A stretch of 64,000 bases of DNA from an uncultured Candidatus Poseidoniales archaeon (lineage in GTDB: Archaea > Thermoplasmatota > Poseidoniia > Poseidoniales > Poseidoniaceae), in the NCBI GenBank assembly GCA_905182125.1, contig CAJJAV010000010.1, positions 68 through 64,067 on the forward strand. Reading direction: 5' to 3'. Of this stretch, positions 2,015 to 61,943 are shown piece by piece. Each line of letters opens with the position of its first letter. Position 1 is the stretch's first letter. The translations under genes and the position numbers were made by a program. The notes beneath the pieces are model-generated. The model searched no databases. It saw nothing but the letters and a program-made list of their open reading frames with translations, and was not told where the DNA came from.

Positions 2015-2042
2015 TTTTATTTCCTCCATTTTTGTTGGAACA

Positions 2043-2342: not shown

Positions 2343-2352
2343 TCCATTCACC

Positions 2353-3396: not shown

Positions 3397-3405
3397 AATC
3401 ATCCC

Positions 3406-3966: not shown

Positions 3967-4033
3967 TGTGTTTCCTCCGTAATGGTGATTTCAATTGACC
4001 AAGCGAACTTGGTCCTTCCATCGTTAGGTGTCT

Positions 4034-4339: not shown

Positions 4340-4377
4340 AATTGCTGCCTCCGTATTTTTGTATGTCCATTGGACTC

Positions 4378-33498: not shown

Positions 33499-34506
33499 AT
33501 GGAACTTTGGATTGATCTGCGCGAATCCAACACACCTCAAGAGGAAAAACCAATGGGTTTTGAACGCTCAATCGGTGGCGATGTCACTGTCGAAGGCAAC
33601 AAACTCATTCAGGCCGGCACGACGATTGGTGCCGCGCTTCACATCGAAAAAGGCGAAAACCAAGATGAAGCAAGGGCATTGATTGGCAGCGTTTCTTGGT
33701 TGCTTGTCTCCTTTGAAGACTGGTCGATGATTCCTCTTGAAAACTTGATTGCTGCAGCGGAAGGAACACCCACTCAAATCGCTGCTCTCCTCACCAAGGT
33801 GACTCAAATCCAAGGCGCTGCTTTTGCACTTGAACGAGGCGTTGATGCTGTCGTCGTCAGCCCTGATGAGGCCTTGATTGAAGCAGCTCAAATTTCGAAA
33901 GCGCAGCGACTGGAACGGCTGGATGTTGCATCGATACCAGCAACCCCCTCCGTCACCAATCTTCAACTTTGCAATTTGAGGATCACTTCTGTCGAAGAAG
34001 GTGGTATAGGCGAGCGATACTGCGTCGATTTCACTTCACTGCTCAACATCGGCGAAGGCATGCTGATCGGTTCAAACGCCTCGAGTTTTATGCTGGTGCA
34101 CAGTGAGACAATACCTTCTGAGTTCGTACCAGTGCGGCCCTTCCGCGTCAATGCTGGTTCGCCACAGTCGTATGTCTTGATGGGCGATGGCTCAACAAAA
34201 TACCTCTCCGAATTAACTTCTGGCGACCAAGTAACCGTTGTCAACGCCCATGGTGCAACCCGGAATGTCGTTGTTGGACGGCTCAAAATTGAGCAGCGTC
34301 CACTTTTGTTATTCCGGTGGGAATATGAAAACCATAAAGAGGGGCATATGTTCTTGCAACAAGCAGAGACGGTACGAGCCGTTGATTCAACCGGAACCGC
34401 AACTTCAGTAACTTCACTTGCAATTGGGGATAAAATTCTAGGTTGGTCTGACGCGGGTGCACGCCACATTGGAGTCACTATCTCGAGCACCGTTTCAGAG
34501 AGGTGA
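33499..34506 (+). CDS. aroB': 3-dehydroquinate synthase II
   Basis: WSMIPLENLIAA, LERGVD, RYCVDF, LVHSET, RPFRVNAG, KYLSEL, KIEQRPLL, LQQAETV. Confidence 0.93.
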   Translation: MELWIDLRESNTPQEEKPMGFERSIGGDVTVEGNKLIQAGTTIGAALHIEKGENQDEARALIGSVSWLLVSFEDWSMIPLENLIAAAEGTPTQIAALLTKVTQIQGAAFALERGVDAVVVSPDEALIEAAQISKAQRLERLDVASIPATPSVTNLQLCNLRITSVEEGGIGERYCVDFTSLLNIGEGMLIGSNASSFMLVHSETIPSEFVPVRPFRVNAGSPQSYVLMGDGSTKYLSELTSGDQVTVVNAHGATRNVVVGRLKIEQRPLLLFRWEYENHKEGHMFLQQAETVRAVDSTGTATSVTSLAIGDKILGWSDAGARHIGVTISSTVSER

Positions 34507-34510
34507 GCAA

Positions 34511-35398
34511 TTGGCGGTACTAGGAAATGGCAAGGCACATGGTGCTTGTAGCCTCCTCCATGCAGCCGGACTCGGCTACGGAGCAAGTGTTGCCCTCGAC
34601 TTACCAATCGCTGTTCGACTTCTTGACACGCCAAGTAAGCGTGATTTAGATGACCCTGACGGCCTGCTCGACCAGGTTCTTTTGGCTTGGAAGAATGCTG
34701 GCTACGGCTATCCAAACGATCGAACAGCTGATGAATTGCATTGGGCTGTCGCATCCAAAATACCCGCTCGGCAAGGTCTCAAATCGAGCGCTGCGACCGC
34801 AGTTGCTGCTGTTCGGGCGCTGGCTGATGCGACCTCAACTGATCTGGAAGATGCAGAAATCGTGGCCCTCGCAGCACAAGCTCAAATTGACGCCGGTGTG
34901 TCGTTGACTGGCTCCATCGATGATGCATGGGCGTGTGCCACACCTGGATGGAAGCTTGTCGACACTCAAGCAGAGACCATCGGCGAGGGCGTCCTTTTGG
35001 AGAGCCCTGGCCCAAGTTCAGAAGATTGGTACGTCCTTCTGGTTTGTCGAGGCGACAGAGCCCACAGACCAACTCTGGAAGATTTCGTCGACCATCGGGG
35101 AGCCTTCGAACAAGCGCTAAGTGCGCTTCAAGAAGGCAGGGAGCTTGTCGCTCTTACTTGGAACGGTCGAGCCATGCTCAATGTGCTGGGTGATGGACTC
35201 GGTCGAAAACTCACGAATGATGCGCTGATCAATGGTGCACGGGCAGCAGGAGTTTCGGGTTCGGGCACAGCCCTTGTGGTGATCGCTCCAAAGGTCAGCA
35301 AGCCGACATGTGACCGACTGAAACAATATTTTGAGAATCAAGAAGATGGATTTACTGTGATTGAGACTTCGTTCCTCAACCAAATCGTCGAAGAATAA
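34511..35398 (+). CDS. aroK: Archaeal (GHMP-type) shikimate kinase
   Basis: SKIPARQGLKSSAA, VSLTGSIDDAWA and AGVSGSG motifs; TTG start after AGGTGA. Confidence 0.9.
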   Translation: MAVLGNGKAHGACSLLHAAGLGYGASVALDLPIAVRLLDTPSKRDLDDPDGLLDQVLLAWKNAGYGYPNDRTADELHWAVASKIPARQGLKSSAATAVAAVRALADATSTDLEDAEIVALAAQAQIDAGVSLTGSIDDAWACATPGWKLVDTQAETIGEGVLLESPGPSSEDWYVLLVCRGDRAHRPTLEDFVDHRGAFEQALSALQEGRELVALTWNGRAMLNVLGDGLGRKLTNDALINGARAAGVSGSGTALVVIAPKVSKPTCDRLKQYFENQEDGFTVIETSFLNQIVEE

Positions 35399-35457
35399 AC
35401 GCCCGTGATGCCGCACGCAACTTCTTGAAGGAAGCACTGCTGGAAAGAACGAATCAC

Positions 35458-36540
35458 ATGCAAATGAACCTTGGTGAACACCTTCGCTTGACCCTGTATG
35501 GGACGAGCCATGGCCCAAGTGTTGGAGCCATCATTGAAGGGATTCCAAAAGGGCTCATCGTAGATTTTGTAGCATTGCGCCAGGCCATGGCCTCACGACG
35601 CCCTGGTGGGCGTTATGCGAGCAAACGCCGTGAAGAAGACCATGTGGAGTTTCTCAGCGGTGTGACCGATGGATGCACCACTGGCGAAGCGGTGGAACTT
35701 TCCATTGCCAACCAAGATGCCAAATCAAAGGATTACAGTTTCCTACCCAATCACCCACGTCCAGGTCATCAAGACATGGTGATGCACAAGCGCATGAAGG
35801 GTGATGCCGATCTTCGAGGTGGAGGTTCGTCTTCTGCCCGTCTTACAGCTCCTCTTGTGGCTGCAGCAGCACTTGTTGCGCCATTGCTCAAACTTCATGG
35901 AGTCCAGTTTGAAGCCCATGTCGGAGCGATTGGGGCAATCCAAGCAGGTCCAATGCATGATCAACCGCCACGCTGGGCCACTGAAGCATGCAAGGAAATG
36001 CGATGCCGTGATCCAACGGCGGCAGAAGCAATGGTCGAATGCGTTGAAGCCCACCGCATGAACCTCAATTCAGTTGGAAGTCAAGTCGACCTCACCATCC
36101 AAAATGTCCCTTTCGGTCTTGGAGAGCCTTGGTTTGATGGCCTCGAACCAGCATTAGCTCGTGCCATGATGGCAATTCCAGCCGCACGTGGTGTGGTTTT
36201 TGGCCGCGGTTTTGAAGCCGTATCGATGACTGGAAAGGAACACAATGACGCGTGGGGGGGCACACCTGACCACCCGGAACTCCTCGGCGAGAAGCCGGAC
36301 GGTGTGCTCGCAGGATTGGCCACTGGGTCCCCTATTTGCTGTTCTGTGGCCTTCAAACCTCCATCGAGCATCGCAGCTGAACAGCACACCCTCAACCTCG
36401 AAACGGGCGCCATTGAACCGCTGGTTGTCAAAGGTCGTCACGATCCTGTCCTCGGGCCTCGAGCGGTATCTGTGGTTGAAGCCATGGCTACTTTGGTCCT
36501 TACAGACCTTGCACTCAGAGGGGGCTTCATCGATGCCTGA
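35458..36540 (+). CDS. aroC: Chorismate synthase
   Basis: GTSHG, PRPGHQD, RGGGSSSARLTA, AIPAARGV, FKPPSSI, GRHDP. Confidence 0.95.
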   Translation: MQMNLGEHLRLTLYGTSHGPSVGAIIEGIPKGLIVDFVALRQAMASRRPGGRYASKRREEDHVEFLSGVTDGCTTGEAVELSIANQDAKSKDYSFLPNHPRPGHQDMVMHKRMKGDADLRGGGSSSARLTAPLVAAAALVAPLLKLHGVQFEAHVGAIGAIQAGPMHDQPPRWATEACKEMRCRDPTAAEAMVECVEAHRMNLNSVGSQVDLTIQNVPFGLGEPWFDGLEPALARAMMAIPAARGVVFGRGFEAVSMTGKEHNDAWGGTPDHPELLGEKPDGVLAGLATGSPICCSVAFKPPSSIAAEQHTLNLETGAIEPLVVKGRHDPVLGPRAVSVVEAMATLVLTDLALRGGFIDA

Positions 36541-37855
36541 GTCAATCACTGTTCACAAGTTTGGAGGCTCCTGCCTCCGGGATTCATCCGACCTCGATCG
36601 GATCGCTGAAGTGATTGGCGCTTGGGAAGGCCGCTCGATGGTGGTGGTCTCAGCCCTCTGGGGCACAACCGACCGGTTGATGCGAGCCAGCAAAGAACCA
36701 CGTTATGCCAGTCGCTTGGTCAACGATCTATCGAGCCAGCATCTTCGGTTTGCCCCTGGACTGCTGAGCAGTGAACTGGGACCGCTGTTCACGAAGGTGC
36801 TCAAGGGCATCGAACAGTCGCTTGTGGAACTTGCAAGGCAGCCAAACAACGGTGTCGCTATCAACCGACTTCTCGCTGCTGGTGAACGCCTCTCCGCTTT
36901 GGTGATCGCTGACCGCCTCAAACAATACGGAATCAAAGCGCACCCAGTTGGTGCAGAAGACATCGGTTTGAGATTGAATGGCATCAACCGAGCCCCAACT
37001 GTCGATTTGGCGGCCTCAATGGGGTTGCTCGACCGCAATGCGCTTCATGACACACCGGTGATCACAGGTTGGTTCGGTGAAGGAAAGGACGGCGAACTTG
37101 CCCTTCTCAGCCGTGGTGGTTCCGACCATACTGCAACATCAATCGGTCGTTTGGTCGATGCAGCCAGAGTGATTCTTTGGAAAGATGTCGAAGGAATTTT
37201 GCCCCTCAACCCACGTTGGGGCATCGCCACCGACCCGATCGCTTACCTTGGGTACGGCGAGGCAATGGAACTCTCTCGACTTGACACTCCAATCCTTCAT
37301 CCCGCTACGGTCGAACCACTCGCAGACACGGGAATCCCGCTGGAAGTTCGACATCTTCACGGCCAAGTGAACGAACGGGCTGCAACCGTGGTCGGTCCGG
37401 ACCTGTATGAAGAGAACGTGATCAAAGCGATTGGGTGCTTACCGAGCGTGGTTTCAATTCACTGCTTAACACGCTCGCTTGAGCAGCAAAGCCGACGATT
37501 AGGCGAGGTTTTAGTCAACTTTGCCGAAGCGGAAATAGCCTGTTGGCACCTCGATGCTCAGCCTGGAGAAATCAGATGGATTGTTTCTCAACATGATGCA
37601 GACACAGCATGTGAATTAATTGAGAAGCACTTCAGTGAATCGACTTCAGAAACATTCAGCGCCATTGTGTCGCTGGTTGGAAACAGAAAAACAACCCAAA
37701 GAGGCAGTTATATTCGATTAGAGGAAGCCGAAAGATTGGGTGTCGAAGTGTTGTCAGACACCGGTCACGCAGTACGAATGCTCACCAAAACAGAAGACAT
37801 GGCAGAACTCTTGCAGCAATTGAGTCAGCGCTGTGGTTTGAAGCACGCTTTGTAG
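36533..37855 (+). CDS. lysC: Aspartate kinase
   Basis: VHKFGGS, VVVSALWGTTD, GERLSA, LSRGGSDHTA, WKDVEGI; ATG overlaps the aroC stop region. Confidence 0.88.
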   Translation: MPESITVHKFGGSCLRDSSDLDRIAEVIGAWEGRSMVVVSALWGTTDRLMRASKEPRYASRLVNDLSSQHLRFAPGLLSSELGPLFTKVLKGIEQSLVELARQPNNGVAINRLLAAGERLSALVIADRLKQYGIKAHPVGAEDIGLRLNGINRAPTVDLAASMGLLDRNALHDTPVITGWFGEGKDGELALLSRGGSDHTATSIGRLVDAARVILWKDVEGILPLNPRWGIATDPIAYLGYGEAMELSRLDTPILHPATVEPLADTGIPLEVRHLHGQVNERAATVVGPDLYEENVIKAIGCLPSVVSIHCLTRSLEQQSRRLGEVLVNFAEAEIACWHLDAQPGEIRWIVSQHDADTACELIEKHFSESTSETFSAIVSLVGNRKTTQRGSYIRLEEAERLGVEVLSDTGHAVRMLTKTEDMAELLQQLSQRCGLKHAL

Positions 37856-38801: not shown

Positions 38802-40115
38802 TCAGAATCCTCGTGCTCCAGCAAGAGCGGTTGATAGAAGCATATCAGGCTCCCAATCCATGATGTTGACGCCGAGGCCACGCAACTCACTGATGAGTAC
38901 GTCGCGCTCTGTCTTCATGACCTCGTATCCAGTTCGATCGATACGGCGGGCATCGAATTCGAATTCAAGAGAGGACGGTGTGAGCACCGTTACGTCGAAA
39001 TCACGTGCTCTGAAATCACGCAGGGCGCTGACGATGGTTGGATCGTCTTCGAGATTGGAAAGGAAGATGATTGGGCTTCCTTTGTTGATGTGCGGCAAAA
39101 TACGGTTGACGACCACTTGCAATGGAATGTTGCCTCGGGCGACAGCTCCTGAAAGTTTGGTCAAGATCACGTACAATTGCTTCTTACCAGTGTCTCGGTC
39201 GACGCTGACGACCTCATCGCCGTACACAATGACACCGACGCTGTCACGACGACTTAGGAAGTACTTGGCCAGTGAAGCAGCGGCGCGAGTCGAGTACACC
39301 AGAGCATTTCTGGAGACTGGACCTGTTTCTGCGACGGACCGGGAATCAACAATAATGATGATGTCCGATACAGCGTCACGTTCACGTTCATTGACCATGA
39401 GTTTGCCTGATCGGGCATAAGCCGACCAGTTGATGGCTCGGAACGAATCGCCTTCGAAGTACTCTCGCAACGAGTAGAACTCGGAACCAGGACCAGGTTG
39501 CCGGATGTTGACAGCACCGGTGAAAATCTTAGGAACACGGGATTTGACGAACGTTTCTTTGAGGTCTTCCATTTTCGGGAACACAAGGAAGTCATTGTAG
39601 ACATGCAATTCTTTTTCCTTGTGAAACAATCCGAAGGGGTCTTGGATCCTGACAGCCACAGGACCTAGACTGTAGAAGCCTCTTAGGGGGCATTCAACGG
39701 TGTATTCGATGTAGGTTTCACGTCGAGGGCCAAGTTCCATGAGGATGTAATTTGCACCGTCTTTGATGCGCATTACTTCAGGAACACGGTCTCGAACTTC
39801 CAAAATCTTGGCGAGCGATGAATGATTCTGCATCCTTAAGGTAACATTGAGTTCGCCGTCTTCGAAAATACGGGCACTGGAGAGCTTTCGCATAGCAGAA
39901 ACACTGCCGAGCGCAACGCCCTCCTCACCCAACCATTCCTCTGCACGTCGGCCGCTTGATGCGACGTCAGCGTGGCCGCCAAACAGGGCAGCCCAAGTCA
40001 GGAACACGAAGATGACCACCGCGATCGTTACAAGCTGGGAGTTTCGCAAGGTCAACCCAAGCAAATACATGGCTACAGCCAAGCTTCCTAGCATAGCAGA
40101 TTTACGGCTCCACAT
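38802..40115 (-). CDS. DUF58 (vWA-like) protein
   Basis: RGFYSLGP, FYSLREYFEGDSFRAINWSAYAR, IIVDSRS; N-terminal TMs. Confidence 0.92.
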   Translation of the reverse strand: MWSRKSAMLGSLAVAMYLLGLTLRNSQLVTIAVVIFVFLTWAALFGGHADVASSGRRAEEWLGEEGVALGSVSAMRKLSSARIFEDGELNVTLRMQNHSSLAKILEVRDRVPEVMRIKDGANYILMELGPRRETYIEYTVECPLRGFYSLGPVAVRIQDPFGLFHKEKELHVYNDFLVFPKMEDLKETFVKSRVPKIFTGAVNIRQPGPGSEFYSLREYFEGDSFRAINWSAYARSGKLMVNERERDAVSDIIIIVDSRSVAETGPVSRNALVYSTRAAASLAKYFLSRRDSVGVIVYGDEVVSVDRDTGKKQLYVILTKLSGAVARGNIPLQVVVNRILPHINKGSPIIFLSNLEDDPTIVSALRDFRARDFDVTVLTPSSLEFEFDARRIDRTGYEVMKTERDVLISELRGLGVNIMDWEPDMLLSTALAGARGF

Positions 40116-40153
40116 CAATCATCACCTCAATTCAATCAGTAACGTATGTCGTC

Positions 40154-41305
40154 TCAAACAGTTGGTACGGGAACTTCTCGTAGAATGGCTTGAATCACTT
40201 CACCAGGTTCCAGTCCCTTGATTTGATGTTCGGGCTTGAGGATAATTCGGTGGGCGATAGCAAGTTCTGAGACGGCCTTGATGTCATCAGGTGTGACGAA
40301 GTCACGACCACGAAGAGCAGCAGCAGCACGAGAGGTCTTGAGCAATGCTTGGGAACCACGGGGCGAAGCACCGACGAGAACACGAGGATCTTCACGGGTT
40401 CGAGAGACGATTTCAACCATGTACATGCGCAGGGCTGGGTCGACGTAAACGTCTTCACAGGCTTGTTGCATGGCAATGACCCGCTGTGGGTCGGTGATCA
40501 CATCGACATCGACTGCGTCCTTACCACGAGCAATACGTCGGCGGAGGATTTCGTCTTCGTCTGCACGGTCTGGGTAGCCCACGGACATCTTGAACATGAA
40601 ACGGTCAAGTTGTGCTTCTGGAAGCGGGTAGGTACCTTCTTGCTCGACCGGGTTCTGTGTGGCCATAACAATGAATGGTGCTGGGAGTTTGTGAGTAACC
40701 GTACCAATGGTCACCTGCTTCTCTTGCATAGCCTCAAGCAAAGCAGCTTGGGTCTTAGGAGGAGCACGGTTAATTTCGTCAGCAAGGAGAAGGTTGCAGA
40801 ACAGAGGTCCTGGCTTGAAGGTGAATTCACCCTTCTTTGCGTCGTAAATGTTGGTGCCTGTGATGTCAGCAGGGAGCAAGTCAGGCGTAAATTGTACACG
40901 CTTGAAATCACAGCCCAACGCATCAGCGAAGGTGTTGGTCATCAAGGTCTTAGCCAGTCCAGGGTAATCTTCGAACAGAAGGTTACCGTTCGACAAGATG
41001 TTGATCAACACATTGTCGATGACGTGTGGCTTACCGATAATCACTTTCGCCACTTCGGCTGCAATCGCACGTGAGATTGCGCCGACGTGGGTCAAGCGGG
41101 CTTTGACCTCGGGGCTGGCTTGGTGCTTCGGCTGGGCCGGAGCGGCCGGTGCTGCTGGTGCTAGGGCTTGAGCCGCTGGTGCTGCTGGTGCTGGTGCTGC
41201 CGGCATTGGTGGTGCTGGCGCAACAGGTGCTGCGGGGGCGGCTGGAGCCATTGGCGCTGGCGGCGCTGGCGCGGGCGGGGCTGCGGGGGGGGCAGGGGGT
41301 TGCAT
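40154..41305 (-). CDS. moxR: MoxR-family AAA+ ATPase with Pro/Ala-rich N-terminus
   Basis: EDYPGLAKT, RVQFTPDLLPADITG, LADEINRAPPKTQAALLEAMQE, ATQNPVEQEGTYPLPEAQLDRF. Confidence 0.95.
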   Translation of the reverse strand: MQPPAPPAAPPAPAPPAPMAPAAPAAPVAPAPPMPAAPAPAAPAAQALAPAAPAAPAQPKHQASPEVKARLTHVGAISRAIAAEVAKVIIGKPHVIDNVLINILSNGNLLFEDYPGLAKTLMTNTFADALGCDFKRVQFTPDLLPADITGTNIYDAKKGEFTFKPGPLFCNLLLADEINRAPPKTQAALLEAMQEKQVTIGTVTHKLPAPFIVMATQNPVEQEGTYPLPEAQLDRFMFKMSVGYPDRADEDEILRRRIARGKDAVDVDVITDPQRVIAMQQACEDVYVDPALRMYMVEIVSRTREDPRVLVGASPRGSQALLKTSRAAAALRGRDFVTPDDIKAVSELAIAHRIILKPEHQIKGLEPGEVIQAILREVPVPTV

Positions 41306-41324
41306 GTCTATTGTCCTCCAAGTT

Positions 41325-42911
41325 TCAATTACCCCAACGTCGGATGTGCGGGATTACCTCTCGCAATTCTTCGCTGGAGTAGATGCGGTTGGAACTGATC
41401 AGTTCAACCAATCGCGGATCACGCACCATTTGCATGATTTCCGCAGAGGATTTGCGCATGAATTCGTCACGCGTCAAATCGTTAAATTGCCGTACTTTGG
41501 AAAGGAGTGCTTCTCTTGTACGCATTTGATATTGAGCAGCATCGACTTTCTTAGGTCGCTCTCTAAATCGAGTAAGATCGAAGACATGGCGCCAGTTTTC
41601 CTTTTCGGGAACGACCATGATGGCGATGGCCAACAGCGCAAACAAGTTGAGGATGATCAGCCATTTTAGGACCACGTCGCTGGTCAGCAAAACAATGGCG
41701 CCCATGGCTTCAGTGAACGGTGAAGAGAGGGCGCTCGACACGTGGCGGCTTTCATCGAAGACGATGTAGAAGTTGGAATTGAATCGGGTGACTGATGTTG
41801 AGATGTCTTCATTGTCTTTTTCCATCATGTCCTGCATCAGGGCTTGGAAGTACTGGCCGTTGCCGTTCCAGCTGGTGTCGCCTTGAGCGTCGGAAAGTCC
41901 GTTGGAATCAGAGTTCCAGCAGTTGTGACCATTTTCCACGTAATAGGGAGAAGTGCATTGTTGGTAACCGAGTTCTTCTGCGATGTCTTGATCCCAAAGG
42001 TGGTTTGCGAGCACTGAGTGATCGGAGACGAAGACAATGGATCCTGTCACGGTGACTTCACCTTGGTCGTTGTCCAATGTCTGGTCCAAGACTTCGATTC
42101 CAGGGTAATCGATTCGGACAATAAGGCCAGTCTTTCCTTCACCCAATGTTGGGTTCTTGTCGCTGTTGATGTCCATGTTGCTGGAGTCTGTGACAATCAC
42201 TGCCGATGTTGAAGCTGCAGCGAGGACATTCACCTCACGGTTGGTATCGGTTTGATCGTCCAGCACCTGAATGGCGGTCGGACGGTGGAAGAGAACAGGC
42301 AATCGGCAGTTATCGTAGACGCCAATGTCGAGGCTGCCTTGGGCACAGGGAATCAAACGCTCATCACCCATTTCAGTGACGTTGGCACGGAGGCTTGCTG
42401 CAGCCCAGAGGCGGCGGTAATCTCCCGGTTGATTTTCATCGAGGTTGTTGGTCATCTCGTAGTAGCGCTGGTCATCAAGGACCATGTCGCCGAAGTACTT
42501 GACGCCGAATTCATCCGCAACGAGTTGTGCATTGGTTGAATTTGCAGCGAGGATCACTTTTCCGCCTTTCTTGGTAACGAAGTCGTACATAGCGGAGGCT
42601 TCTGCTGCATCGAAGGGCTTCTCGGGTCCAGCGATGACAAGCATGGTTCGGTGAGGGTCCTGCCAGTCGTTGACGAGCATAGGGGTCGACATTGTGTTGG
42701 CAATTGAAAAGTCATCGTTTGAAAAATCATTGCGCATCGAAGTAAGTTGTTGGCTGGAATAGGCGTCATCAGCCGTTGCATAAGGAGAAAGAACAGTTTG
42801 TTTGTCCAAGCTGACCAATCCGATGAGTGCAATTGAAAGAACTAAAGAGGTCATCAATCCAATTTTGAGCCAGGATTCAACGGAGAGTTTTTTTGCTTCT
42901 GTTTCTGCCAT
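41325..42911 (-). CDS. DUF4350-like secreted/membrane protein of the MoxR operon
   Basis: N-terminal TM, LVIAGPEKPF..E..AMYDFV.KGG.VILA, IVFVSDHSVLAN, FDESRH, C-terminal TM. Confidence 0.75.
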   Translation of the reverse strand: MAETEAKKLSVESWLKIGLMTSLVLSIALIGLVSLDKQTVLSPYATADDAYSSQQLTSMRNDFSNDDFSIANTMSTPMLVNDWQDPHRTMLVIAGPEKPFDAAEASAMYDFVTKKGGKVILAANSTNAQLVADEFGVKYFGDMVLDDQRYYEMTNNLDENQPGDYRRLWAAASLRANVTEMGDERLIPCAQGSLDIGVYDNCRLPVLFHRPTAIQVLDDQTDTNREVNVLAAASTSAVIVTDSSNMDINSDKNPTLGEGKTGLIVRIDYPGIEVLDQTLDNDQGEVTVTGSIVFVSDHSVLANHLWDQDIAEELGYQQCTSPYYVENGHNCWNSDSNGLSDAQGDTSWNGNGQYFQALMQDMMEKDNEDISTSVTRFNSNFYIVFDESRHVSSALSSPFTEAMGAIVLLTSDVVLKWLIILNLFALLAIAIMVVPEKENWRHVFDLTRFRERPKKVDAAQYQMRTREALLSKVRQFNDLTRDEFMRKSSAEIMQMVRDPRLVELISSNRIYSSEELREVIPHIRRWGN

Positions 42912-43099: not shown

Positions 43100-44077
43100 T
43101 CAAAGGGTGGACCTTTTCCGACCGATTACGCCGACAGTGGCGAAGATCAACACAGCTTCCAACGCAAGGAAGCCGGGCAGGGTGTTGGATTCAACTTTCA
43201 AACCTGAATCTACAGAATCATCTTCACCGTCATTGGTGCTCGAGGAGGAAACATCGTCGACATAGGCAAACACTTCGACATCAAACGTGGTGCTTCGTCC
43301 GACATCGTCGCCTTCTGAAATCAGAGAAATTGTAACTTCACAAGACCTGCGCGGTTGACTCTCAGAAGCGACCAAGGTAAGGGTGGCAGTGGCATCCTTA
43401 CCATTGCGCGCACCGGTTGGGTCGACGAGGGTGTTCGCAAGTGCTTCAAGCCCATCGACGGTAAGATGGGGGCAACTACGAACTTGTGCTGATGCTTCCT
43501 TCACGGCATCGTTGGCGTTCCCGAGGTTGATCATTTGAATCGAAATTTCGACCGTGGAACCTGCGTGAAGTTCATCGTTTGACGGTGTGATTTCCGGACG
43601 CAAATTAAAAATTTTCGGAACATGAATCGTACCTTCAATCTCTTGATCCCCTGTCGAGGTGTCGCCAACATTTTCATTGGCCGAGATGGTCAATGTCGAG
43701 GTGTTGTCAGGATTGTATTCACGTGCATCTACGCTGGAGTCTGTTGCGATGTTGATGGTGAAGCTCTTGTTTTCACCTGCGCCAACCGTGATTGATTCCG
43801 GGCCATCGAAGGTGAACGGCACCCATGTGTTGATTTCATAGGTCAATTCTAATTGTACTTGGCTCATCCGCGTGTTCTCAACATAAGCAACAATTTCGCC
43901 TTCGATATCCCAATCATCTTCCATGCTGACGGTAAACCCATCATCCATGTCAGTGGACCATCCAAGGGTCCAACTCGGTGCTTCGAATTGATCTTGTGCA
44001 ATCACCGAAGGAGGCAGGCTCAGCCCCACGGTAAGCAGGACTGTAAAGGCGAAAAAGAGGGTCCCGCGTTTGTTCAT
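43100..44077 (-). CDS. Secreted surface protein with PGF-CTERM-like C-terminal sorting signal
   Basis: Signal peptide; Ig-like repeats; ends LPGFLALEAVLIFATVGVIGRKRSTL. Confidence 0.7.
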   Translation of the reverse strand: MNKRGTLFFAFTVLLTVGLSLPPSVIAQDQFEAPSWTLGWSTDMDDGFTVSMEDDWDIEGEIVAYVENTRMSQVQLELTYEINTWVPFTFDGPESITVGAGENKSFTINIATDSSVDAREYNPDNTSTLTISANENVGDTSTGDQEIEGTIHVPKIFNLRPEITPSNDELHAGSTVEISIQMINLGNANDAVKEASAQVRSCPHLTVDGLEALANTLVDPTGARNGKDATATLTLVASESQPRRSCEVTISLISEGDDVGRSTTFDVEVFAYVDDVSSSSTNDGEDDSVDSGLKVESNTLPGFLALEAVLIFATVGVIGRKRSTL

Positions 44078-44081
44078 CAAA

Positions 44082-45059
44082 TCACTTCACCATTCCTTGC
44101 ACTGCTCGCTTTGCCAGGACACGAACCATCGATCGGCGGTACCTTGGAGGAAGCGCCGTGTTATTCACAGGTTTGACGCTCTTTTGAAGGCTGGAGGACA
44201 GTGCCTTGATCGATGCCGCCCCTTTCCAGCCGTCGGCCAGAACTGCTGCGACTTCTTCGGGATGGCAGCGTGGAATTGACTCAAGCGCTGTTGTGGCCAA
44301 AACGAGGGTCGAAGGATCGCCTTCAATCCACGATGCTGCAACGCCAGCTTCAGGGAAATCCCATGAATCACGTACACGCAGTTTTTGATAGGAACCTGTC
44401 CGAAGAGCTGCCTCTTCCGGAAGGGTCACCTTGAGAAGGAATTCTCCTTCTTCGAGAACATTCTTTTTCATCCCGTCAAGCTGGTAGAACGATTGAATCG
44501 GCAGGGTGCGAGCACCGTTCGGCCCAATCAAATGCACACTCGCTCCGAGCACCATCAACGTCGGGGCAATGTCGCCTTGGTAGGTCGCTACGCAGAGGGT
44601 GTTTTGATTTGGAATCACCCGGCAGTCTGCTCCAGAACCACAGTCTGCTTTGTGGCACCAATCGATGGAGCGGCGCCAATCTTCACCTTGGTTGTACCAG
44701 AAGCACCGCGTATCAAGGCACAGGTTGCCTCCGAGCGTGGCATTGGTTCGAATCAATGAAGAGGCCACTTTGGAAGCGGCTTGTACAATCACGGGGTGCA
44801 CTCCATTGGCTTCAGTCAAGTCAGCCAGTCGAGTCATGCAACCTAATTCGCTGGCTGAAATGGTCGAGGTCCCCTCGATTCGAGCAAGTGAAATCACGTG
44901 TGGCTTGGTGTTGATGTGCCACTTGTAGTTTGGCAACAGGTCTGTTCCGCCTGCGACCCAGTCAAAGGATTCTCCAGAGGCCATCAACTGAGCAGCCAAT
45001 TCACATGCTGCATCGACCGATATCGGGTGGTGAAGGGTAAAAGGTGGCATCAGCATCAT
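44082..45059 (-). CDS. hcrB: FAD/[4Fe-4S] subunit of a xanthine-dehydrogenase-family enzyme, HcrB-like
   Basis: AGGTDLLP, ATLGGNLCLDTRCFWYNQ...WCHKADC...CRV...CVATYQGDIAP Cys-loop insertion, KLRVRDSWDFP. Confidence 0.8.
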   Translation of the reverse strand: MMLMPPFTLHHPISVDAACELAAQLMASGESFDWVAGGTDLLPNYKWHINTKPHVISLARIEGTSTISASELGCMTRLADLTEANGVHPVIVQAASKVASSLIRTNATLGGNLCLDTRCFWYNQGEDWRRSIDWCHKADCGSGADCRVIPNQNTLCVATYQGDIAPTLMVLGASVHLIGPNGARTLPIQSFYQLDGMKKNVLEEGEFLLKVTLPEEAALRTGSYQKLRVRDSWDFPEAGVAASWIEGDPSTLVLATTALESIPRCHPEEVAAVLADGWKGAASIKALSSSLQKSVKPVNNTALPPRYRRSMVRVLAKRAVQGMVK

Positions 45060-47860
45060 TCATCACCGTCCATGTGTCGTTGTTCTTTTTTGAGCCACGC
45101 CTTTCCTGCAAGACCCAGTGCAGCAAGTTGCTCCGGGTCTGGTTCGGTTGCCATTCGCCAACCTTCAACTTGATCTTCGAGTGGAATGTTTGGATCGAAA
45201 CCAAACAAAACACCGTTGACGTAAGGACTGGTGTCTTCACTGCGTTGGCGGGCCTGATCGCGGATCTTGTGTTCTGCAGCGCGTTTGACAAGCAATGGTT
45301 GCAATTCTCCGTGTTCGACGCGTGGGGGAAGGAGATCAAGTGGGTCGTCAACGCCTGCTGCTTTCATTCCTTTTTCAATGCCCTTGAACACCACATCAGG
45401 TGTCAATGGCAAGTCGCGAAGTCGGATGCCAATCGCATCGTAGACGGCGTTCACAACAGCTGGAAGAATCGGCAGAAGTGGTCCTTCGCCAGCCTCTTTC
45501 GCACCGAATGGACCCTCAGGGTCGCATGATTCAATGATGATTGGTTCGACATGGGGCATTTCATGCACAGACGGAATTTTGTAATCTAGCAAGTTCGGGT
45601 TCTGCAAATGTCCGGTTCGGCCATAGACCATTTTCTCAGAAAGCACTTGTCCAAGGCCCATATGGCAGGAACCAATGATTTGGCCCTTGACCGCTAAGGG
45701 GTTGAGTGCCTTACCACAGTCGTGGGCTGCCCATACCTTGGTGCATTTTATCATTCCAGTCTCGACATCAACATCCACTTCAGCAACGTAGGCTGAGAAG
45801 GAATAGGCTGGAGCAAGTCCTGCGGCCGCACCCTTGTGAACACCACCCATTGGAGGCGAACGGTAGGCACCACTCGCAATGAGGGCTCCTTTGTCTTCCT
45901 GGGCCTTGTGCAAAGCCTTGAGGTAAGACGTCCCTATGGCCGGGTCGTGTTTGTAGTAAATTCGGCGATCGTTGAGCACGAGGTTGTTCGGATGATAACC
46001 AAGAATTTCCCATGCTGCCTTGAGCAATTGCTCACGAATTTCAAGCGCTGCTCGAATGGCTGCGTTCGCATTCATGAACGTCACTCTGCTGGAATACGAC
46101 CCAAGGTCAACCGGTGAGGTGTCGCTTTCATGGCTCTTTACGTGAATCATTTCAATCGGAAGCGCTAGAACTTCGGAGACCACTTGGGCAACGGCTGTTG
46201 TCGAACCCTGCCCGATGTCGGCTGCACCGGTGTGAACCGTGACGCCACCGTCCATGTCGACCTGAATGTGCACCGTTGCGTGTGGGAAACGGTTTGGATC
46301 CCAGTGGATCGGCAGTCCGGAGCCTGAGATGAAGAAACCACACCCAATCCCTATGCCTTTTCCGAGCGGCATTTGTCGGAACTTAGTGTCCCACTGGGAG
46401 CCTTCTCGTACTTTTTCAAGTGCTTCGCGCATACCATTGGAAGTGATTCTGAAACCACTGATTGTGCGGCTGTGGGGTGGCAAAAGGTTGGCTAAACGAA
46501 GATCCATCGGGTCGACCTTCATCTGGTCTGCCATCTCATCCAGCCCAACTTCGACTGCACATCGTGTGTTCACAGCACCGTGGCCACGCATAGCGCCAGA
46601 AGCTGGTTTGTTGGTCCAAACCCGGGCACCTGTGTAATGGAAAGAGCCAAGTTCGTAAGGTGCGGTTGCAAGGACACCGTTGTAGTAAGAGGTGACGTGA
46701 CCGAAGGAAGCAAAACCGCCACCATCAATCAGAGCATCGATATCGAAACCAGAAATACGAGCATCATCATCTGCCGTCATCTTGACCTCAATGTGGCTTG
46801 GGTGACGTCCACGGTTGATCCAGTAGACTTCTTCTCGGTCGAATGTGATGCGGACAGGCCGTCCTGCTTTTCGAGAAAGAATTGCTGCACACATCTCGTG
46901 AGGGAACGGATCTGATTTTCCACCAAAACCGCCACCAACAAAGGTTCGGATGACATTGATTTGATGCATTGGGACATCCAAGACCGTTGCTAGTGCGCGA
47001 TGGGTGTAGTGAGGCACTTGTTGAGGGGTATAGAGTTGCAAACGTCCGTTTGGATCCCAATGGGCAACCACTGCGTGGGGTTCAGTGAACCCGTGGTGGA
47101 CACCTGCCATTTTCCACTTGCCGTGTGAAGAGGCAAGGGGTTCTTTGACCAGGGAACGGTCTCCAAATTCTTGGAACACTCGCTTTTGGACGTTGGTCCG
47201 AGCCAAGTGGTACTTGCCACGCCAATGAATAGGCTCCTCCACATCTTCGAGGCCCTTTTTAGGATCAAACACCGGCTCTAGAACTTCGTATTCAACCTCG
47301 AACAGGTTGAGTGCTTCCATGGCCGTCGCTTCGTCAACTGCTGCGACAGAAGCAACAAGGTCGCCGACGTGACGAACCTTTTCCACCGCCATTGCGTGTT
47401 CGTCTTTGGTGACTGGGAGCACACCAAATCGGTGAGGTGAATCAGCACCAGTTGCAACTGCGAGAACGCCTGGCAAGGCCTCGACCTTCGAGGTGTCAAT
47501 CGACTTGATTCTGGCGTAGTGATGCGGTGAGCGTAGGATTTTCCCAATCACTTCATTGGCCAGACGAACGTCATCGCCGTACCAAGCCTGACCGGTGACT
47601 TTGGCGTTTGAATCAACCAATGCAGTTGGTTTTCCAACCGAAGTTCCGGTACGTACACGATCGTGCACGTGGGAGCCTGCAGGCTGCGCTTCTCGACCAC
47701 CCACCGTTTCGGGGATGAAATCGAGGTCGCGTGGCGACATTATGGGTTTTGAACCACCTGAGCCGGGAGGCGGGAATGCTTGCTTTCCTGCGACGCGTTT
47801 GCCATCCTTGCGAGTGACTTTTCCAGCCGAACCTGGCTGTTGACGGTATCCTCCAGACAT
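45056..47860 (-). CDS. hcrA: Molybdenum-binding subunit, 4-hydroxybenzoyl-CoA reductase alpha-like
   Basis: KVTGQAWY, GGGFGGK, GAMRGHG, GAADIGQGS, GSYSSRVTFM, GKALNPLAV.GQ, FGAKEAGEG. Confidence 0.78.
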   Translation of the reverse strand: MSGGYRQQPGSAGKVTRKDGKRVAGKQAFPPPGSGGSKPIMSPRDLDFIPETVGGREAQPAGSHVHDRVRTGTSVGKPTALVDSNAKVTGQAWYGDDVRLANEVIGKILRSPHHYARIKSIDTSKVEALPGVLAVATGADSPHRFGVLPVTKDEHAMAVEKVRHVGDLVASVAAVDEATAMEALNLFEVEYEVLEPVFDPKKGLEDVEEPIHWRGKYHLARTNVQKRVFQEFGDRSLVKEPLASSHGKWKMAGVHHGFTEPHAVVAHWDPNGRLQLYTPQQVPHYTHRALATVLDVPMHQINVIRTFVGGGFGGKSDPFPHEMCAAILSRKAGRPVRITFDREEVYWINRGRHPSHIEVKMTADDDARISGFDIDALIDGGGFASFGHVTSYYNGVLATAPYELGSFHYTGARVWTNKPASGAMRGHGAVNTRCAVEVGLDEMADQMKVDPMDLRLANLLPPHSRTISGFRITSNGMREALEKVREGSQWDTKFRQMPLGKGIGIGCGFFISGSGLPIHWDPNRFPHATVHIQVDMDGGVTVHTGAADIGQGSTTAVAQVVSEVLALPIEMIHVKSHESDTSPVDLGSYSSRVTFMNANAAIRAALEIREQLLKAAWEILGYHPNNLVLNDRRIYYKHDPAIGTSYLKALHKAQEDKGALIASGAYRSPPMGGVHKGAAAGLAPAYSFSAYVAEVDVDVETGMIKCTKVWAAHDCGKALNPLAVKGQIIGSCHMGLGQVLSEKMVYGRTGHLQNPNLLDYKIPSVHEMPHVEPIIIESCDPEGPFGAKEAGEGPLLPILPAVVNAVYDAIGIRLRDLPLTPDVVFKGIEKGMKAAGVDDPLDLLPPRVEHGELQPLLVKRAAEHKIRDQARQRSEDTSPYVNGVLFGFDPNIPLEDQVEGWRMATEPDPEQLAALGLAGKAWLKKEQRHMDGDE

Positions 47861-47865
47861 GATGA

Positions 47866-48468
47866 TCACCTTGCGTGGCCCGGCGGCATTTGCGGCTCTT
47901 CGGGTCCTGTTGGATGTGGATCGGGGTGTGGATCGCTTGCAGGGGCAGCGGGTTCGACTTCACCGCGGTGAATTGCAGCAGCAGCTTGGATTGATTCGAC
48001 GATTTGCTGGTAGCCTGTGCACCTGCAGAGGTTTCCTTCGATAGCACAAGCAATTTCCTTGTCACTCGGGTTGTTGTTCTCATTGAGCAGGGCTTGTGCC
48101 GTGACGAGGAAACCAGGCGTGCAAAAGCCACATTGGGAGCCGCCATATTCGGCGAAGCAAGATTGAATCGGGGCGAGATGTGCGCCTTCAGATAAGCCTT
48201 CAACAGTGATGATCGAAGAACCTTCAACTTGACCTGCTAAGCAGAGGCAAGACAAACGAGGCGTTCCGTCAATCAGGACGCTGCAACAACCGCATGTACC
48301 AAGATCGCAACCGCGCTTCACGCCGAGCGTCCCTACTTTGTCACGCAAAACGTCGAGCAAAATCGCATTTGAAGGTGCGAGGACTTCAACAGGTCTTCCG
48401 TTGACCTCTGCAGACCAAATTTCCTTCTTCGCGACTGGGATCATATCAACGTGTTCAGTGCCTACCAT
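47866..48468 (-). CDS. hcrC: 2x[2Fe-2S] subunit of a xanthine-dehydrogenase-family enzyme, HcrC-like
   Basis: GCDLGTCGCCSVL..SC, QCGFCTPG and NLCRCTGY motifs. Confidence 0.85.
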   Translation of the reverse strand: MVGTEHVDMIPVAKKEIWSAEVNGRPVEVLAPSNAILLDVLRDKVGTLGVKRGCDLGTCGCCSVLIDGTPRLSCLCLAGQVEGSSIITVEGLSEGAHLAPIQSCFAEYGGSQCGFCTPGFLVTAQALLNENNNPSDKEIACAIEGNLCRCTGYQQIVESIQAAAAIHRGEVEPAAPASDPHPDPHPTGPEEPQMPPGHAR

Positions 48469-48529: not shown

Positions 48530-50131
48530 TCAATCATCAATGCTCGGTCGTTGACGAACAGACATGACATCATCTTCACCAGCTGGTGGATCGACCCAAT
48601 CTTCGTCGCCTGGAAGGATTAAACCTTCACCGACACCAACAAGGCGGCTTGCCAAATTGCGTTGACGAAGGACCAATTCATCCCAATTGACTTCTTCATC
48701 ACGCCATGCTTGCCACCGCTTGAGTGAGCGGTAATTCACAACCACCTTGGCGTAGAGCCGAAGGTGGGCCTTGGCTGAAGTCGGCCACCAAAGGAAGAAA
48801 ACGCAGAACACCAGATAAAATGGAAGACGCGTTAAGTTTTCCAAGAGCCAATGCATCTGCAACAACTCATTTACCGGACTCGCATCATTGAGCAGCAACC
48901 ACGTCGCAGCCAGCGATGCAATCAGCCACCAAAGTGGGAAACAGACCATGGCAGATAGCAACTTGATCGTGCTGAGAATTGAACCATCTGCCCCTTTCGA
49001 TTTCATGCGACCGACAATCATGGCATTTGCCCGATACGGCACAAGGTTGCCAATCATGGCACCCCACGTGATCAAACCGAACATCCACACACCGGCCCAA
49101 GCCCACAAGAGGAACGATTTAGCGAAACCAGAGTAAGAAAGGCGTTCAGGACGTGAATCGACATCGAATGGAGTGATGCCTCGGTGGTCGAGCGCCTCAA
49201 AGTGGGCTTCGGCTTCTTCAACGATCGAGGTGGCGGTCTCGGGGTTGTTCTTCGCCATGTATTCCCACCCAGCACGCACGCGACGAGCACCGAGGACGGC
49301 GTGGGCGTAACTTGGTTTGTTCAATTTACCAGTGGTTTGCCGGGCCCGCTCAGCATAAGCCAAACTTCGACCCTTCCAAATCAGGGTGCGTTCGCGCCAT
49401 GTTGTCTTTGAGAGGCTTGCTCGTTGGAGTTCAGTGCTGATGTCTTCAGTTGCGACTTTGACCCATGCTCGATCTTCTTGGTCTTGGAGCACTTCATCGT
49501 CGAACTCTTCTGGGATTGGCGGGAACACCATGGCTCGTTCTATCACCACGGCTGCACGCTCCCGGAAGCGTTGAGAATTGGAATAATGCAATCCAATTGG
49601 AATCATTTGCGGTTCAGCCAATCCATCACGTTGCGCTTCCCGGCGAGCAGCAAGAAGAATTCGTGCAGCGCCTGAGCGCACACGTTTGACGTTCGAACCA
49701 GTGTGCGTAGTCCCTTCTGGGAATATCATCAATCGCCCACCTTGGGCTACAAGAGAAGAAACATCGGAAAGCATCTCTGCGTTTCGCAAGCGCGCAGCTC
49801 CCTTGTCGGCACTGTCCTGGGCCCGTTCGACGGGCACGCCGCCGCCAGCACGAAGCAAGCGGCCGATGAGTGGCATTTTGAACAAGGTGTGTTTTGCAAT
49901 CATCGAAACCCTTCCAGGCAACGAGGCGTTCAACAGCATAGGATCGACCAAACCACTCGGATGCCATGAAATGAACATCACTCCCCCTTTTGGTGGAATG
50001 TTCTCATCATCGACAATGTTGATTTCGCGGAACCAGACTGAGACAAGGGAGCGGAAAACTCGCCGGGCAATGCGATAGGCCCGATTGGCTCGAGGATGGT
50101 GCTCATCCACGGGATCTTTTAGCCATCGCAT
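48530..50131 (-). CDS. Lysophospholipid/glycerol-phosphate acyltransferase (PlsC-like) with C-terminal TM region
   Basis: WHPSGLVDP (catalytic His/Asp block), MIAKHTLF, GGVPVER, IFPEGT. Confidence 0.85.
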   Translation of the reverse strand: MRWLKDPVDEHHPRANRAYRIARRVFRSLVSVWFREINIVDDENIPPKGGVMFISWHPSGLVDPMLLNASLPGRVSMIAKHTLFKMPLIGRLLRAGGGVPVERAQDSADKGAARLRNAEMLSDVSSLVAQGGRLMIFPEGTTHTGSNVKRVRSGAARILLAARREAQRDGLAEPQMIPIGLHYSNSQRFRERAAVVIERAMVFPPIPEEFDDEVLQDQEDRAWVKVATEDISTELQRASLSKTTWRERTLIWKGRSLAYAERARQTTGKLNKPSYAHAVLGARRVRAGWEYMAKNNPETATSIVEEAEAHFEALDHRGITPFDVDSRPERLSYSGFAKSFLLWAWAGVWMFGLITWGAMIGNLVPYRANAMIVGRMKSKGADGSILSTIKLLSAMVCFPLWWLIASLAATWLLLNDASPVNELLQMHWLLENLTRLPFYLVFCVFFLWWPTSAKAHLRLYAKVVVNYRSLKRWQAWRDEEVNWDELVLRQRNLASRLVGVGEGLILPGDEDWVDPPAGEDDVMSVRQRPSIDD

Positions 50132-59316: not shown

Positions 59317-59321
59317 GGTGC

Positions 59322-59909: not shown

Positions 59910-59980
59910 GGTCGTGGCTTGGTCAGATGTTTGATTGCCTTTTCCTTTTTGTTGATATAGACTGAAGCGGTTTGACGCCC

Positions 59981-61905: not shown

Positions 61906-61943
61906 ACCAACGGGAGGAGGCCGCCCTTTATGTCTCCATTGAT

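Follow-up and report, generated by a model that had tools for sequence, protein, structure and literature searches.

A 64,000-nt stretch of DNA from an uncultured Candidatus Poseidoniales archaeon (the window; contig CAJJAV010000010.1, positions 68-64,067; genome GCA_905182125.1, 82% complete) carries three overlapping open reading frames on the minus strand that occupy exactly 44082-48468 (window numbering, used throughout). The operon encodes, in the order small, large and medium subunit, an enzyme with molybdenum, flavin and iron-sulfur centres that falls in the clade of 4-hydroxybenzoyl-CoA reductase (HBCR, HcrCAB/HbaBCD). The enzyme belongs to a distinct, large, multi-phylum and uncharacterised "standalone" subclade of the HBCR family, here named the S-clade. 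The operon is core to the order Poseidoniales. Co-occurrence and operon evidence tie the Hcr-type enzyme to oxygen-dependent Box-type genes. We give an even chance to a function as an aroyl-CoA dehydroxylase, probably ferredoxin-linked, that feeds a Box-type pathway without BoxA. More tentatively, the S-clade enzyme and a short, BoxA-less BoxB-like cluster may form one undescribed hybrid pathway that is core to all Poseidoniales, a reductive dehydroxylation followed by an O2-dependent epoxidation.

Subunits and cofactors

An earlier note, made from the letters of this DNA, had described three overlapping genes with the motifs of Thauera HcrCAB. Open reading frames and Pfam domains confirmed the three genes (Table 1), and all quoted motifs were found in the translations. 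The small subunit has a Fer2_2 domain (103 bits) and a Fer2 domain, with both [2Fe-2S] cysteine motifs, CDLGTCGCC...C and CGFCTPG...CRCTGY. The large subunit comprises Ald_Xan_dh_C, MoCoBD_1 and MoCoBD_2 and reads AMRGHG (GAMRGHG), GAADIGQGS, GSYSSRVTFM, GAKEAGEG and GGGFGGKSD. The cysteine loop of the FAD subunit reads CLDTRCFWYNQGEDWRRSIDWCHKADCGSGADCRVIPNQNTLCVATYQGDIAP. The GTG start of the large subunit overlaps the stop of the small subunit by 4 nt. An ATG at 47860 is the likelier start; it gives 934 amino acids, the length of the database protein P0004. The GC content is even over the region (0.49-0.54), so there is no sign of a recent insertion.

All three subunits have an Hcr model as best NCBIfam match: HcrC (TIGR03193) with 178 bits and an equivalog cut-off of 258 for the small subunit, HcrA (TIGR03194) with 776 bits and a cut-off of 995 for the large subunit, and HcrB (TIGR03195) with 231 bits and a cut-off of 405 for the medium subunit. 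The runners-up were XdhA with 516 bits for the large and a model with 85 bits for the medium subunit. Searches against solved structures gave the same picture. The large subunit matched the Thauera aromatica structure 1RM6_A with 597 bits, followed by a CoxL with 262 bits; the medium subunit matched 1RM6_B with 166 bits, and the next structure reached 77 bits. The likeness to Thauera HcrCAB (PDB 1RM6/1SB3), stated in the earlier note, holds on alignment and includes the gene order small-large-medium. Identity to the T. aromatica enzyme is 42% for the alpha subunit (BLAST) and 36% for the beta subunit (HcrB). For the large subunit, AlphaFold gave a model (mean pLDDT 71.6, pTM 0.77) that superimposed best on 1RM6, with a target-normalised TM score of 0.92, followed by quinoline oxidoreductase with 0.84.

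The FAD subunit carries the extra [4Fe-4S] loop of HcrB. Misalignment of its cysteines had been named beforehand as a possible refutation; Cys119, Cys135, Cys146 and Cys156 align with the Thauera ligands Cys122, Cys138, Cys146 and Cys155 (Thauera numbers counted from the structure alignment). The four ligands are present in all Thermoplasmatota orthologues and in 72/72 FAD subunits encoded beside S-clade large subunits. A Poseidoniales-specific insert of three residues adds a further cysteine to the loop (KADCGSGADC). Relative to Thauera HcrA, the large subunit is extended by about 75 amino acids at the N-terminus and about 105 at the C-terminus. Both extensions are conserved order-wide with recognisable motifs, and AlphaFold predicts a fold for the C-terminal extension (pLDDT 64-94).

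The proline-rich tail of the small subunit (47866-47960) and the N-terminus of the large subunit (47740-47869), which is disordered and rich in Gly and Pro, join at the 4-nt GTGA overlap. Small and large subunits are fused in several relatives (P0127, P0128, P0131, P0132). The junction looks like a linker remnant or a linker precursor. In a relative with 84% identity (GCA_038141355.1, locus L003, 12802-13747), the FAD subunit is split into two open reading frames by a frameshift right where the [4Fe-4S] loop begins. Either the assembly is wrong at this point or the gene is broken.

Table 1. Positions of the Hcr-like operon, of linked genes in the window and of the Box-type genes on other contigs and in other genomes (window numbering where no contig or locus is given).
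Feature	Position	Strand	Remarks
Small subunit, HcrC-like	47866-48468	-	200 aa; Fer2_2 + Fer2; Pro-rich C-terminal tail
Large Mo subunit (molybdopterin cytosine dinucleotide type), HcrA-like	45056-47869	-	937 aa from GTG
Medium FAD subunit, HcrB-like	44082-45059	-	325 aa; Pfam FAD_binding_5
Inserted loop of the FAD subunit, residues 114-156	44592-44720	-	four Cys aligning with the Thauera HcrB [4Fe-4S] ligands
XdhC-type chaperone, Mo-cofactor insertion/sulfuration	58402-59325	-	Pfam XdhC_CoxI + XdhC_C
MocA-like nucleotidyltransferase	59322-60002	-	Pfam NTP_transf_3, 91 bits
Acyl-CoA dehydrogenase linked to mocA-xdhC	60757-62031	-	all four acyl-CoA dehydrogenase Pfam domains
BoxB-like epoxidase gene, host genome, other contig	G000:C16:46807-48024	-	224 bits to BoxB
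Aldehyde dehydrogenase, host BoxB-like cluster	C16:40692-42107		
Crotonase-family protein, host BoxB-like cluster	C16:42129-42884		apparently frameshifted in the assembly
3-Hydroxyacyl-CoA dehydrogenase, host BoxB-like cluster	C16:44508-45365		
~186-aa neighbour of the BoxB-like gene	L022 9006-9566	-	
~186-aa neighbour of the BoxB-like gene	L023 12122-12685	+	
~186-aa neighbour of the BoxB-like gene	L021 9238-9789	-	
FNR-like partial BoxA match, example	G027:C1:526527-527099		
FNR-like partial BoxA match, example	G022:C5:47415-47993		
FNR-like partial BoxA match, example	G014:C1:318228-318803		

Phylogeny and gene context of relatives

The phylogenetic analysis of the large subunit placed the window enzyme inside a loop-bearing Hcr clade and in a subclade separate from Thauera HcrA. 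The nearest relatives outside Poseidoniales came from a search of 1.84 billion cluster representatives; the Thauera HcrA sequence was taken from the structure alignment, with P0141 as its cluster representative. The tree (IQ-TREE, LG+C20, 55 rows, 761 columns; supports are ultrafast bootstrap / SH-aLRT) recovered a broad-sense Hcr clade (100/99) and within it the clade with loop-bearing FAD partners (100/99). Thauera HcrA and P0141 form the sister group (98/88) to the remaining loop-bearing sequences (100/99). These consist of a small set, P0126, P0127 and a Thermoplasmatota copy of the same class, and the large standalone S-clade (100/99) with the window enzyme. The Thermoplasmatota (100/99) and the Poseidoniales (100/100) are well-supported groups. 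The window enzyme shares the supported clade with Thauera HcrA, but is not orthologous to the Thauera branch. A quick tree and FastTree agreed with this picture. Outside the loop clade, the sole FAD partner inspected (P0132, locus L008) has no loop.

The genes of P0126, P0127, P0128 and P0132 adjoin HGD-D and BcrAD_BadFG gene pairs that resemble class-I benzoyl-CoA reductase (BCR). Ligase, thiolase, hydratase, short-chain dehydrogenase/reductase (SDR) and 2-oxoacid:ferredoxin oxidoreductase genes accompany these pairs. The ancestral setting of the clade is therefore anaerobic aroyl-CoA metabolism, in the form of aroyl-CoA dehydroxylation. Such BCR-linked enzymes of uncultured anaerobes (P0126, P0127, P0128; loci L005-L007), together with locus L018, are nearest to the window enzyme outside the S-clade (45-50% identity) and share GGGFGGKSDP and the [4Fe-4S] loop with it. 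Two HGD-D and two BcrAD_BadFG genes, a ligase, a thiolase and an SDR are adjacent in loci L005-L007; the window operon lacks these neighbours.

The S-clade has a different context. Its member P0125 is located among housekeeping genes. For nine Thermoplasmatota orthologues (54-58% identity), the genes are arranged as a compact mocA-xdhC-small-large-FAD module, with mocA and xdhC directly in front of the subunit genes. In 64 non-Poseidoniales S-clade loci from named genomes, no BCR-like and no BoxB-like gene lay closer than 10 kb. The hosts of these loci include marine "Rickettsiales" and Deltaproteobacteria metagenome-assembled genomes, Planctomycetota, Acidobacteriota, Gemmatimonadota, KSB1, Calditrichota and Krumholzibacteriota. 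A search of a plasmid collection with the large subunit gave no match above 35% identity and no reference of use.

Locus L018 (G226:C55:66000-85900), from another order of the same class, has a BCR-linked Hcr type in the arrangement ECH...SDR-thiolase-small-large-ACAD (ECH, enoyl-CoA hydratase; ACAD, acyl-CoA dehydrogenase). The contig also has four HGD-D genes, 12-20 kb upstream. The genome also encodes a second, distant xanthine-oxidase-family paralogue, which adjoins a 2-oxoacid:ferredoxin oxidoreductase.

Active-site conservation

Conservation was scored on columns invariant in six true or BCR-linked HcrA sequences; a column was counted as Hcr-specific if fewer than one third of the outgroup sequences had the residue. 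Poseidoniales keep 145 of the 160 invariant columns. Twenty of the invariant columns are Hcr-specific, for example Y326, W454, S520, S522 and E255 (Thauera numbering). The window enzyme retains 20/20; across the order, 19 are kept in 16/16 sequences and the remaining one in 15/16. The catalytic glutamate (Thauera E726, window E795) and the glutamine at the molybdenum site (Thauera Q214, window Q284) are conserved. Poseidoniales-specific changes are few and mostly conservative. Those to note are, in Thauera numbering, T213Q beside the molybdenum-site glutamine, Y316F and Y348W. The S-clade is nested among BCR-linked sequences, and shared ancestry therefore contributes to the retention of residues. 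In the alignments, the retention is consistent with a conserved substrate class, short of proof.

The earlier note had taken GGGFGGKSD, in place of the GGGFGARTE given for HcrA, as a hint of a different substrate. This does not stand: GGGFGGKSDP is common to the BCR-linked relatives and the outgroups. Thauera is the odd one, and by this comparison its GARTE is the derived state.

A core enzyme of Poseidoniales

Poseidoniales (marine group II, MGII) are among the most abundant archaea of surface seawater, and the usual model presents them as protein and lipid degraders. We know of no cultured member. The large subunit was present in 200/201 sampled Poseidoniales genomes, full length, free of stop codons and almost always as a single copy. 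It spans 24/24 genera and all 61 high-quality genomes, with identities of 68-98%, and orthologues occur in other Thermoplasmatota. The enzyme described earlier for a single genome is a trait of the order and part of a multi-phylum subclade.

The order is described as aerobically respiring (PMC6461757), in agreement with the aerobic host assumed at first. Rinke et al. found a complete molybdenum cofactor pathway to be core to the order and left its xanthine-oxidase-family client unnamed (PMC6461757). A metatranscriptome study of MGIIb took "xdhC and yagS" as xanthine dehydrogenase (10.1101/2020.09.16.299958). Many orthologues in the order already carry the JGI/NCBI label "4-hydroxybenzoyl-CoA reductase subunit alpha". 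The enzyme is thus "previously unrecognised", as the earlier note put it, in the literature searched, which ignores it or calls it xanthine dehydrogenase, but not in the databases. A literature search retrieved no paper that joins HBCR, benzoyl-CoA or box genes with the metabolism of MGII or Poseidoniales.

The genome encodes one xanthine-oxidase-family large subunit, the Hcr-like one. Genes for an XdhC-type chaperone and a MocA-like nucleotidyltransferase sit, together with an ACAD gene, 10 kb from the operon in the same window. The XdhC presumably serves the Hcr-type enzyme, because this is the only enzyme of its family in the genome. The MocA-like protein is a candidate for the enzyme that makes the cytosine dinucleotide form of the molybdenum cofactor; mocA adjoins xdhC in the window and in relatives. 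The adjacency of ACAD, MocA and XdhC is conserved in the Poseidoniales loci L089, L094-L097, L099, L101 and L102. In NCBIfam, the window ACAD scores highest to acryloyl-CoA reductase AcrC (369 bits) and then to cyclohexane-1-carbonyl-CoA dehydrogenase (346 bits), in each case short of the cut-off. We infer that the ACAD is a pathway partner of the molybdenum enzyme.

BoxB-like genes and other candidate partners

Of the partner genes proposed in the earlier note, ferredoxins and a core BoxB-like cluster were found; aryl-CoA ligase, bcr and BoxA genes were not. The genome has three candidate 2[4Fe-4S] ferredoxins and one 2-oxoacid:ferredoxin oxidoreductase. In the 82% complete genome, neither HGD-D and BcrAD homologues of BCR nor a dedicated aryl-CoA ligase were detected. 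The lone AMP-forming ligase resembles a long-chain fatty-acid ligase (FadD-like).

A BoxB-like di-iron protein of about 394 amino acids is encoded in 60/61 genomes of the order. The host protein scores 224 bits to BoxB and 37 to PaaA; scores to BoxB range from 165 to 224 bits, with a cut-off of 499. The closest known counterpart, the benzoyl-CoA 2,3-epoxidase BoxB of Azoarcus evansii (PDB 3PER), is about 80 residues longer. The di-iron ExxH/D/ExxH motifs of Azoarcus BoxB are retained, and the crotonase/HADH/ALDH cluster is shared (HADH, 3-hydroxyacyl-CoA dehydrogenase; ALDH, aldehyde dehydrogenase). The BoxB-like cluster of Poseidoniales comprises three crotonase-family proteins, HADH, ALDH and a conserved 186-aa protein. 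A near-identical partial copy of the host BoxB-like gene lies at the end of contig C19 (42477-43268).

The protein of about 186 amino acids has no family match; in all Poseidoniales loci examined, its gene directly follows the BoxB-like gene. By its position, it may be a partner subunit of the BoxB-like enzyme. Canonical BoxA was found in 0/41 genomes of the order; the best match reached 93 bits, with a cut-off of 459, and covered the FNR-like half only. In several genomes, the FNR-like protein of about 430 amino acids behind this partial match is encoded on the contig of the BoxB-like gene, at a conserved distance of 16-17 kb, and may be an electron-transfer partner. Three MGIIb genomes (G041, G037, G081) among 101 sampled have an HGD-D gene pair. 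In G041, the genome examined (L023, G041:C5:40000-59900, at 1439-5648), a full class-I BCR-like set of two BcrAD_BadFG and two HGD-D genes is located directly beside the BoxB-like cluster. This BCR-like set could be an anaerobic dearomatising system in an aerobic order, or a contamination or recent transfer.

The co-occurrence of Hcr-like and BoxB-like genes was analysed in 237 Thermoplasmatota genomes outside Poseidoniales (Fisher test, no phylogenetic correction). BoxB-like genes were present in 9/18 Hcr-positive and 16/219 Hcr-negative genomes (p = 1e-5). With BoxB-like or HGD-D genes counted, the numbers were 17/18 and 67/219 (p = 9e-8). HGD-D by itself is a weak link and was set aside (9/18 versus 56/219, p = 0.05). 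Among 50 bacterial genomes with an S-clade operon, canonical BoxB was found in 21 (20 above cut-off, one split across contigs) and the short BoxB-like form in 10 more.

Operons provide a further connection. Loci of KSB1 and Calditrichota-like bacteria have ECH-ALDH-ALDH-ECH-thiolase-ACAD-hcrCAB-HADH in the same orientation. The ACAD directly upstream of the hcr-like genes shares 51-54% identity with the window ACAD. For locus L084, the best match of the ACAD in the genome of the window is the ACAD adjacent to mocA-xdhC (51% identity), and the best matches of its ECH, ALDH and HADH are genes of the BoxB-like cluster.

Proposed function and alternatives

The degradation of 4-hydroxybenzoyl-CoA, or a very similar aroyl-CoA, may start with the Hcr-type enzyme. 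A low-potential donor, most likely a 2[4Fe-4S] ferredoxin of the genome, would give electrons to the extra [4Fe-4S] cluster. From there the electrons would pass to FAD, the two [2Fe-2S] clusters and the molybdenum centre. At the molybdenum, the para-hydroxyl group would be removed to yield benzoyl-CoA. Benzoyl-CoA would not be reduced, but taken over by the BoxB-like di-iron epoxidase cluster, which is likewise core and lies on another contig. The ACAD beside mocA-xdhC in the window would belong to the same CoA-ester pathway. The core BoxB-like cluster favours this reductive, benzoyl-CoA-producing direction, and the oxidative run suggested in the earlier note gained no support of its own.

Several points weigh against an aroyl-CoA dehydroxylase coupled to a Box-type pathway. 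Thauera HBCR is reported to be oxygen-sensitive (10.1101/2025.01.17.632430), whereas Poseidoniales respire oxygen. None of the three subunits reaches its NCBIfam equivalog cut-off, and the identity to the sole biochemically characterised HcrA available for comparison is 42%. The enzyme has T213Q beside the molybdenum-site glutamine and the changes Y316F and Y348W at conserved tyrosine positions, and the two lineage-specific extensions of the large subunit could alter its specificity. The genome has no detected aryl-CoA ligase for the activation step. BoxA is absent from the 41 genomes, and the BoxB-like protein is short and far below the BoxB cut-off. The hcr-like and BoxB-like genes are never adjacent, neither in Poseidoniales nor in the 64 other S-clade loci. 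The co-occurrence p values ignore phylogeny, and one Thermoplasmatota family (f10) accounts for 7 of the 9 BoxB-like positives. No BoxB is seen in 17 of the 50 bacterial host genomes of the S-clade.

The main rival to dehydroxylation is an enzyme recruited from an HBCR ancestor that would hydroxylate (hetero)aroyl-CoA or other acyl-CoA substrates oxidatively, in the usual direction of the xanthine-oxidase family; its electrons would leave via the [4Fe-4S] cluster and go to ferredoxin or into the respiratory chain. Furoyl-CoA dehydrogenase is the analogy for such an oxidative aroyl-CoA hydroxylase; the literature search found no paper that links it to HBCR. The aerobic host, the absence of BCR, the 17 bacterial hosts without BoxB, the scores below the equivalog cut-offs and the Poseidoniales-specific substitutions near the molybdenum-site glutamine fit oxidation, and some bacterial operons combine ACAD, ECH, thiolase and ALDH but have no gene for a dearomatising enzyme close by. 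We nevertheless consider it clearly less likely than dehydroxylation. The enzyme is nested, with strong support, among BCR-linked relatives of the dehydroxylase type and retains every Hcr-specific invariant residue. It strongly co-occurs with genes for BoxB or BoxB-like proteins, whose substrate is, or for the BoxB-like proteins would be, unsubstituted benzoyl-CoA. The title of Unciuleac 2004 ties the extra [4Fe-4S] loop to an "inverted" electron flow in HBCR. Less probable still is a complex that acts chiefly as redox partner of the BoxB-like epoxidase and replaces BoxA by means of the [4Fe-4S] cluster at its surface; its molybdenum site might or might not have a separate substrate. In its favour, BoxA is lacking in all 41 genomes of the order, and both systems are core and co-occur across phyla. 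A full molybdenum site and the conservation of dedicated MocA and XdhC, however, imply catalysis at molybdenum. The same 17 bacterial genomes have the S-clade enzyme without BoxB, the two gene sets are not adjacent, and the Thermoplasmatota family f22 has BCR-like in place of BoxB-like genes.

Other xanthine-oxidase-family functions are unlikely; NCBIfam models, structure scores and the tree place the enzyme with Hcr. Xanthine or purine dehydrogenase (XdhABC/PucCDE), as assumed for MGIIb from the "xdhC and yagS" annotations, has a very low probability. The metatranscriptome study reads the genes this way beside a highly transcribed xanthine/uracil permease (10.1101/2020.09.16.299958), and XdhA is the second-best NCBIfam family of the large subunit. 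Its 516 bits compare with a cut-off of 780, and the XdhB score of 85 with one of 310; HcrA exceeds XdhA by 260 bits and HcrB exceeds XdhB by 146 bits. The [4Fe-4S] loop is present, and Xdh-like representatives are an outgroup in the tree. After GGGFGGK, the window enzyme has a serine in place of what we take to be the substrate-binding glutamate of purine dehydrogenases. A generic ferredoxin-linked aldehyde oxidoreductase is just as improbable. PaoABC of Escherichia coli and the Methylobacillus aldehyde oxidase are three-subunit enzymes of the family that also have an FAD-subunit [4Fe-4S] loop (PMC3958847). Their FAD subunits (PaoB, 5g5g_B; 5y6q_B) align across the loop region, and the order is a heterotroph that produces aldehydes. 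They are, however, periplasmic aldehyde oxidases and not CoA-ester enzymes, and far more distant in all subunits: PaoC reaches 201-289 bits where HcrA reaches 597-776, the FAD subunits 77 and 64 bits where 1RM6_B reaches 166, and the window enzyme stands apart from both in the trees. Clustering with generic aldehyde oxidoreductases, which the earlier note had named as a refutation of the Hcr assignment, thus did not occur. On scores and trees, the xanthine dehydrogenase and PaoABC readings were rejected. Aerobic CO dehydrogenase (CoxSML) was rejected on the same grounds, with CoxL models at 285-312 bits; as the earlier note had read, GAMRGHG stands in place of AYxCSFR (form I) or AYRGAGR (form II), and both of these motifs are absent.

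Aroyl-CoA dehydroxylation in Poseidoniales would still differ from the known systems. Thauera aromatica provides the closest characterised enzyme, with the same subunits, fold, [4Fe-4S] ligands and key active-site residues. The genome of the window, however, belongs to an aerobe and has no BCR, aryl-CoA ligase or anaerobic aromatic gene cluster, and its enzyme has the large-subunit extensions, the loop insert with the extra cysteine and the three substitutions described above. To our knowledge, the urolithin C 9-dehydroxylase UcdCFO (Ucdh) of Enterocloster bolteae is the only other characterised reductive dehydroxylase in the xanthine-oxidase family. Ucdh likewise has three subunits and a molybdopterin cytosine dinucleotide cofactor and depends on XdhC; it has no [4Fe-4S] loop, uses NADH, does not act on a CoA ester and is about 33% identical to HBCR (PMC11760930; 10.1101/2025.01.17.632430). 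The window enzyme is much closer to HBCR than Ucdh is.

Neighbourhood of the operon

The gene directly after the FAD subunit (43100-44080, minus strand) encodes a secreted 326-aa protein with a signal peptide and a PGF-CTERM-like anchor. It is followed by DUF4350, MoxR AAA+ ATPase and DUF58 genes (38802-42911, minus strand), which are syntenic with the Hcr-like operon order-wide. The 326-aa protein belongs with this DUF4350/MoxR/DUF58 cluster and was treated as unrelated to the enzyme despite the conserved synteny. The upstream acyltransferase (48530-50131) was not counted as part of the operon; it is present in only part of the order. Shikimate-pathway genes (33499-37855, plus strand), whose synteny extends to the relative with locus L003, are 6-10 kb away from the operon. 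They encode a 3-dehydroquinate synthase II, a GHMP-type kinase, a chorismate synthase and a 536-aa protein of the amino-acid-kinase family. Their closeness to the operon is probably coincidental.

Significance for Poseidoniales and the HBCR family

The interest of the enzyme lies in a core gene of a globally abundant aerobic order, an uncharacterised multi-phylum HBCR subclade and the tie to Box-type genes. The Hcr-type enzyme is at least one client of the core molybdenum cofactor pathway of the order, because it is the sole member of its family in the genome and essentially universal in Poseidoniales. The result corrects the "xanthine dehydrogenase" reading in the interpretation of MGII transcriptomes. 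If the proposed function is true, aromatic acids, a class within the dissolved organic matter from phytoplankton and from land, would become accessible to MGII. Compounds of the 4-hydroxybenzoate/benzoate type made by phytoplankton would then be catabolised by the planktonic archaea that are most abundant in the surface ocean. The textbook "anaerobic" HBCR family would have a large, oxygen-compatible branch that works in aerobes and is spread over many aerobic bacterial phyla. This would raise the questions of how the enzyme tolerates oxygen and which ferredoxin serves as its donor.

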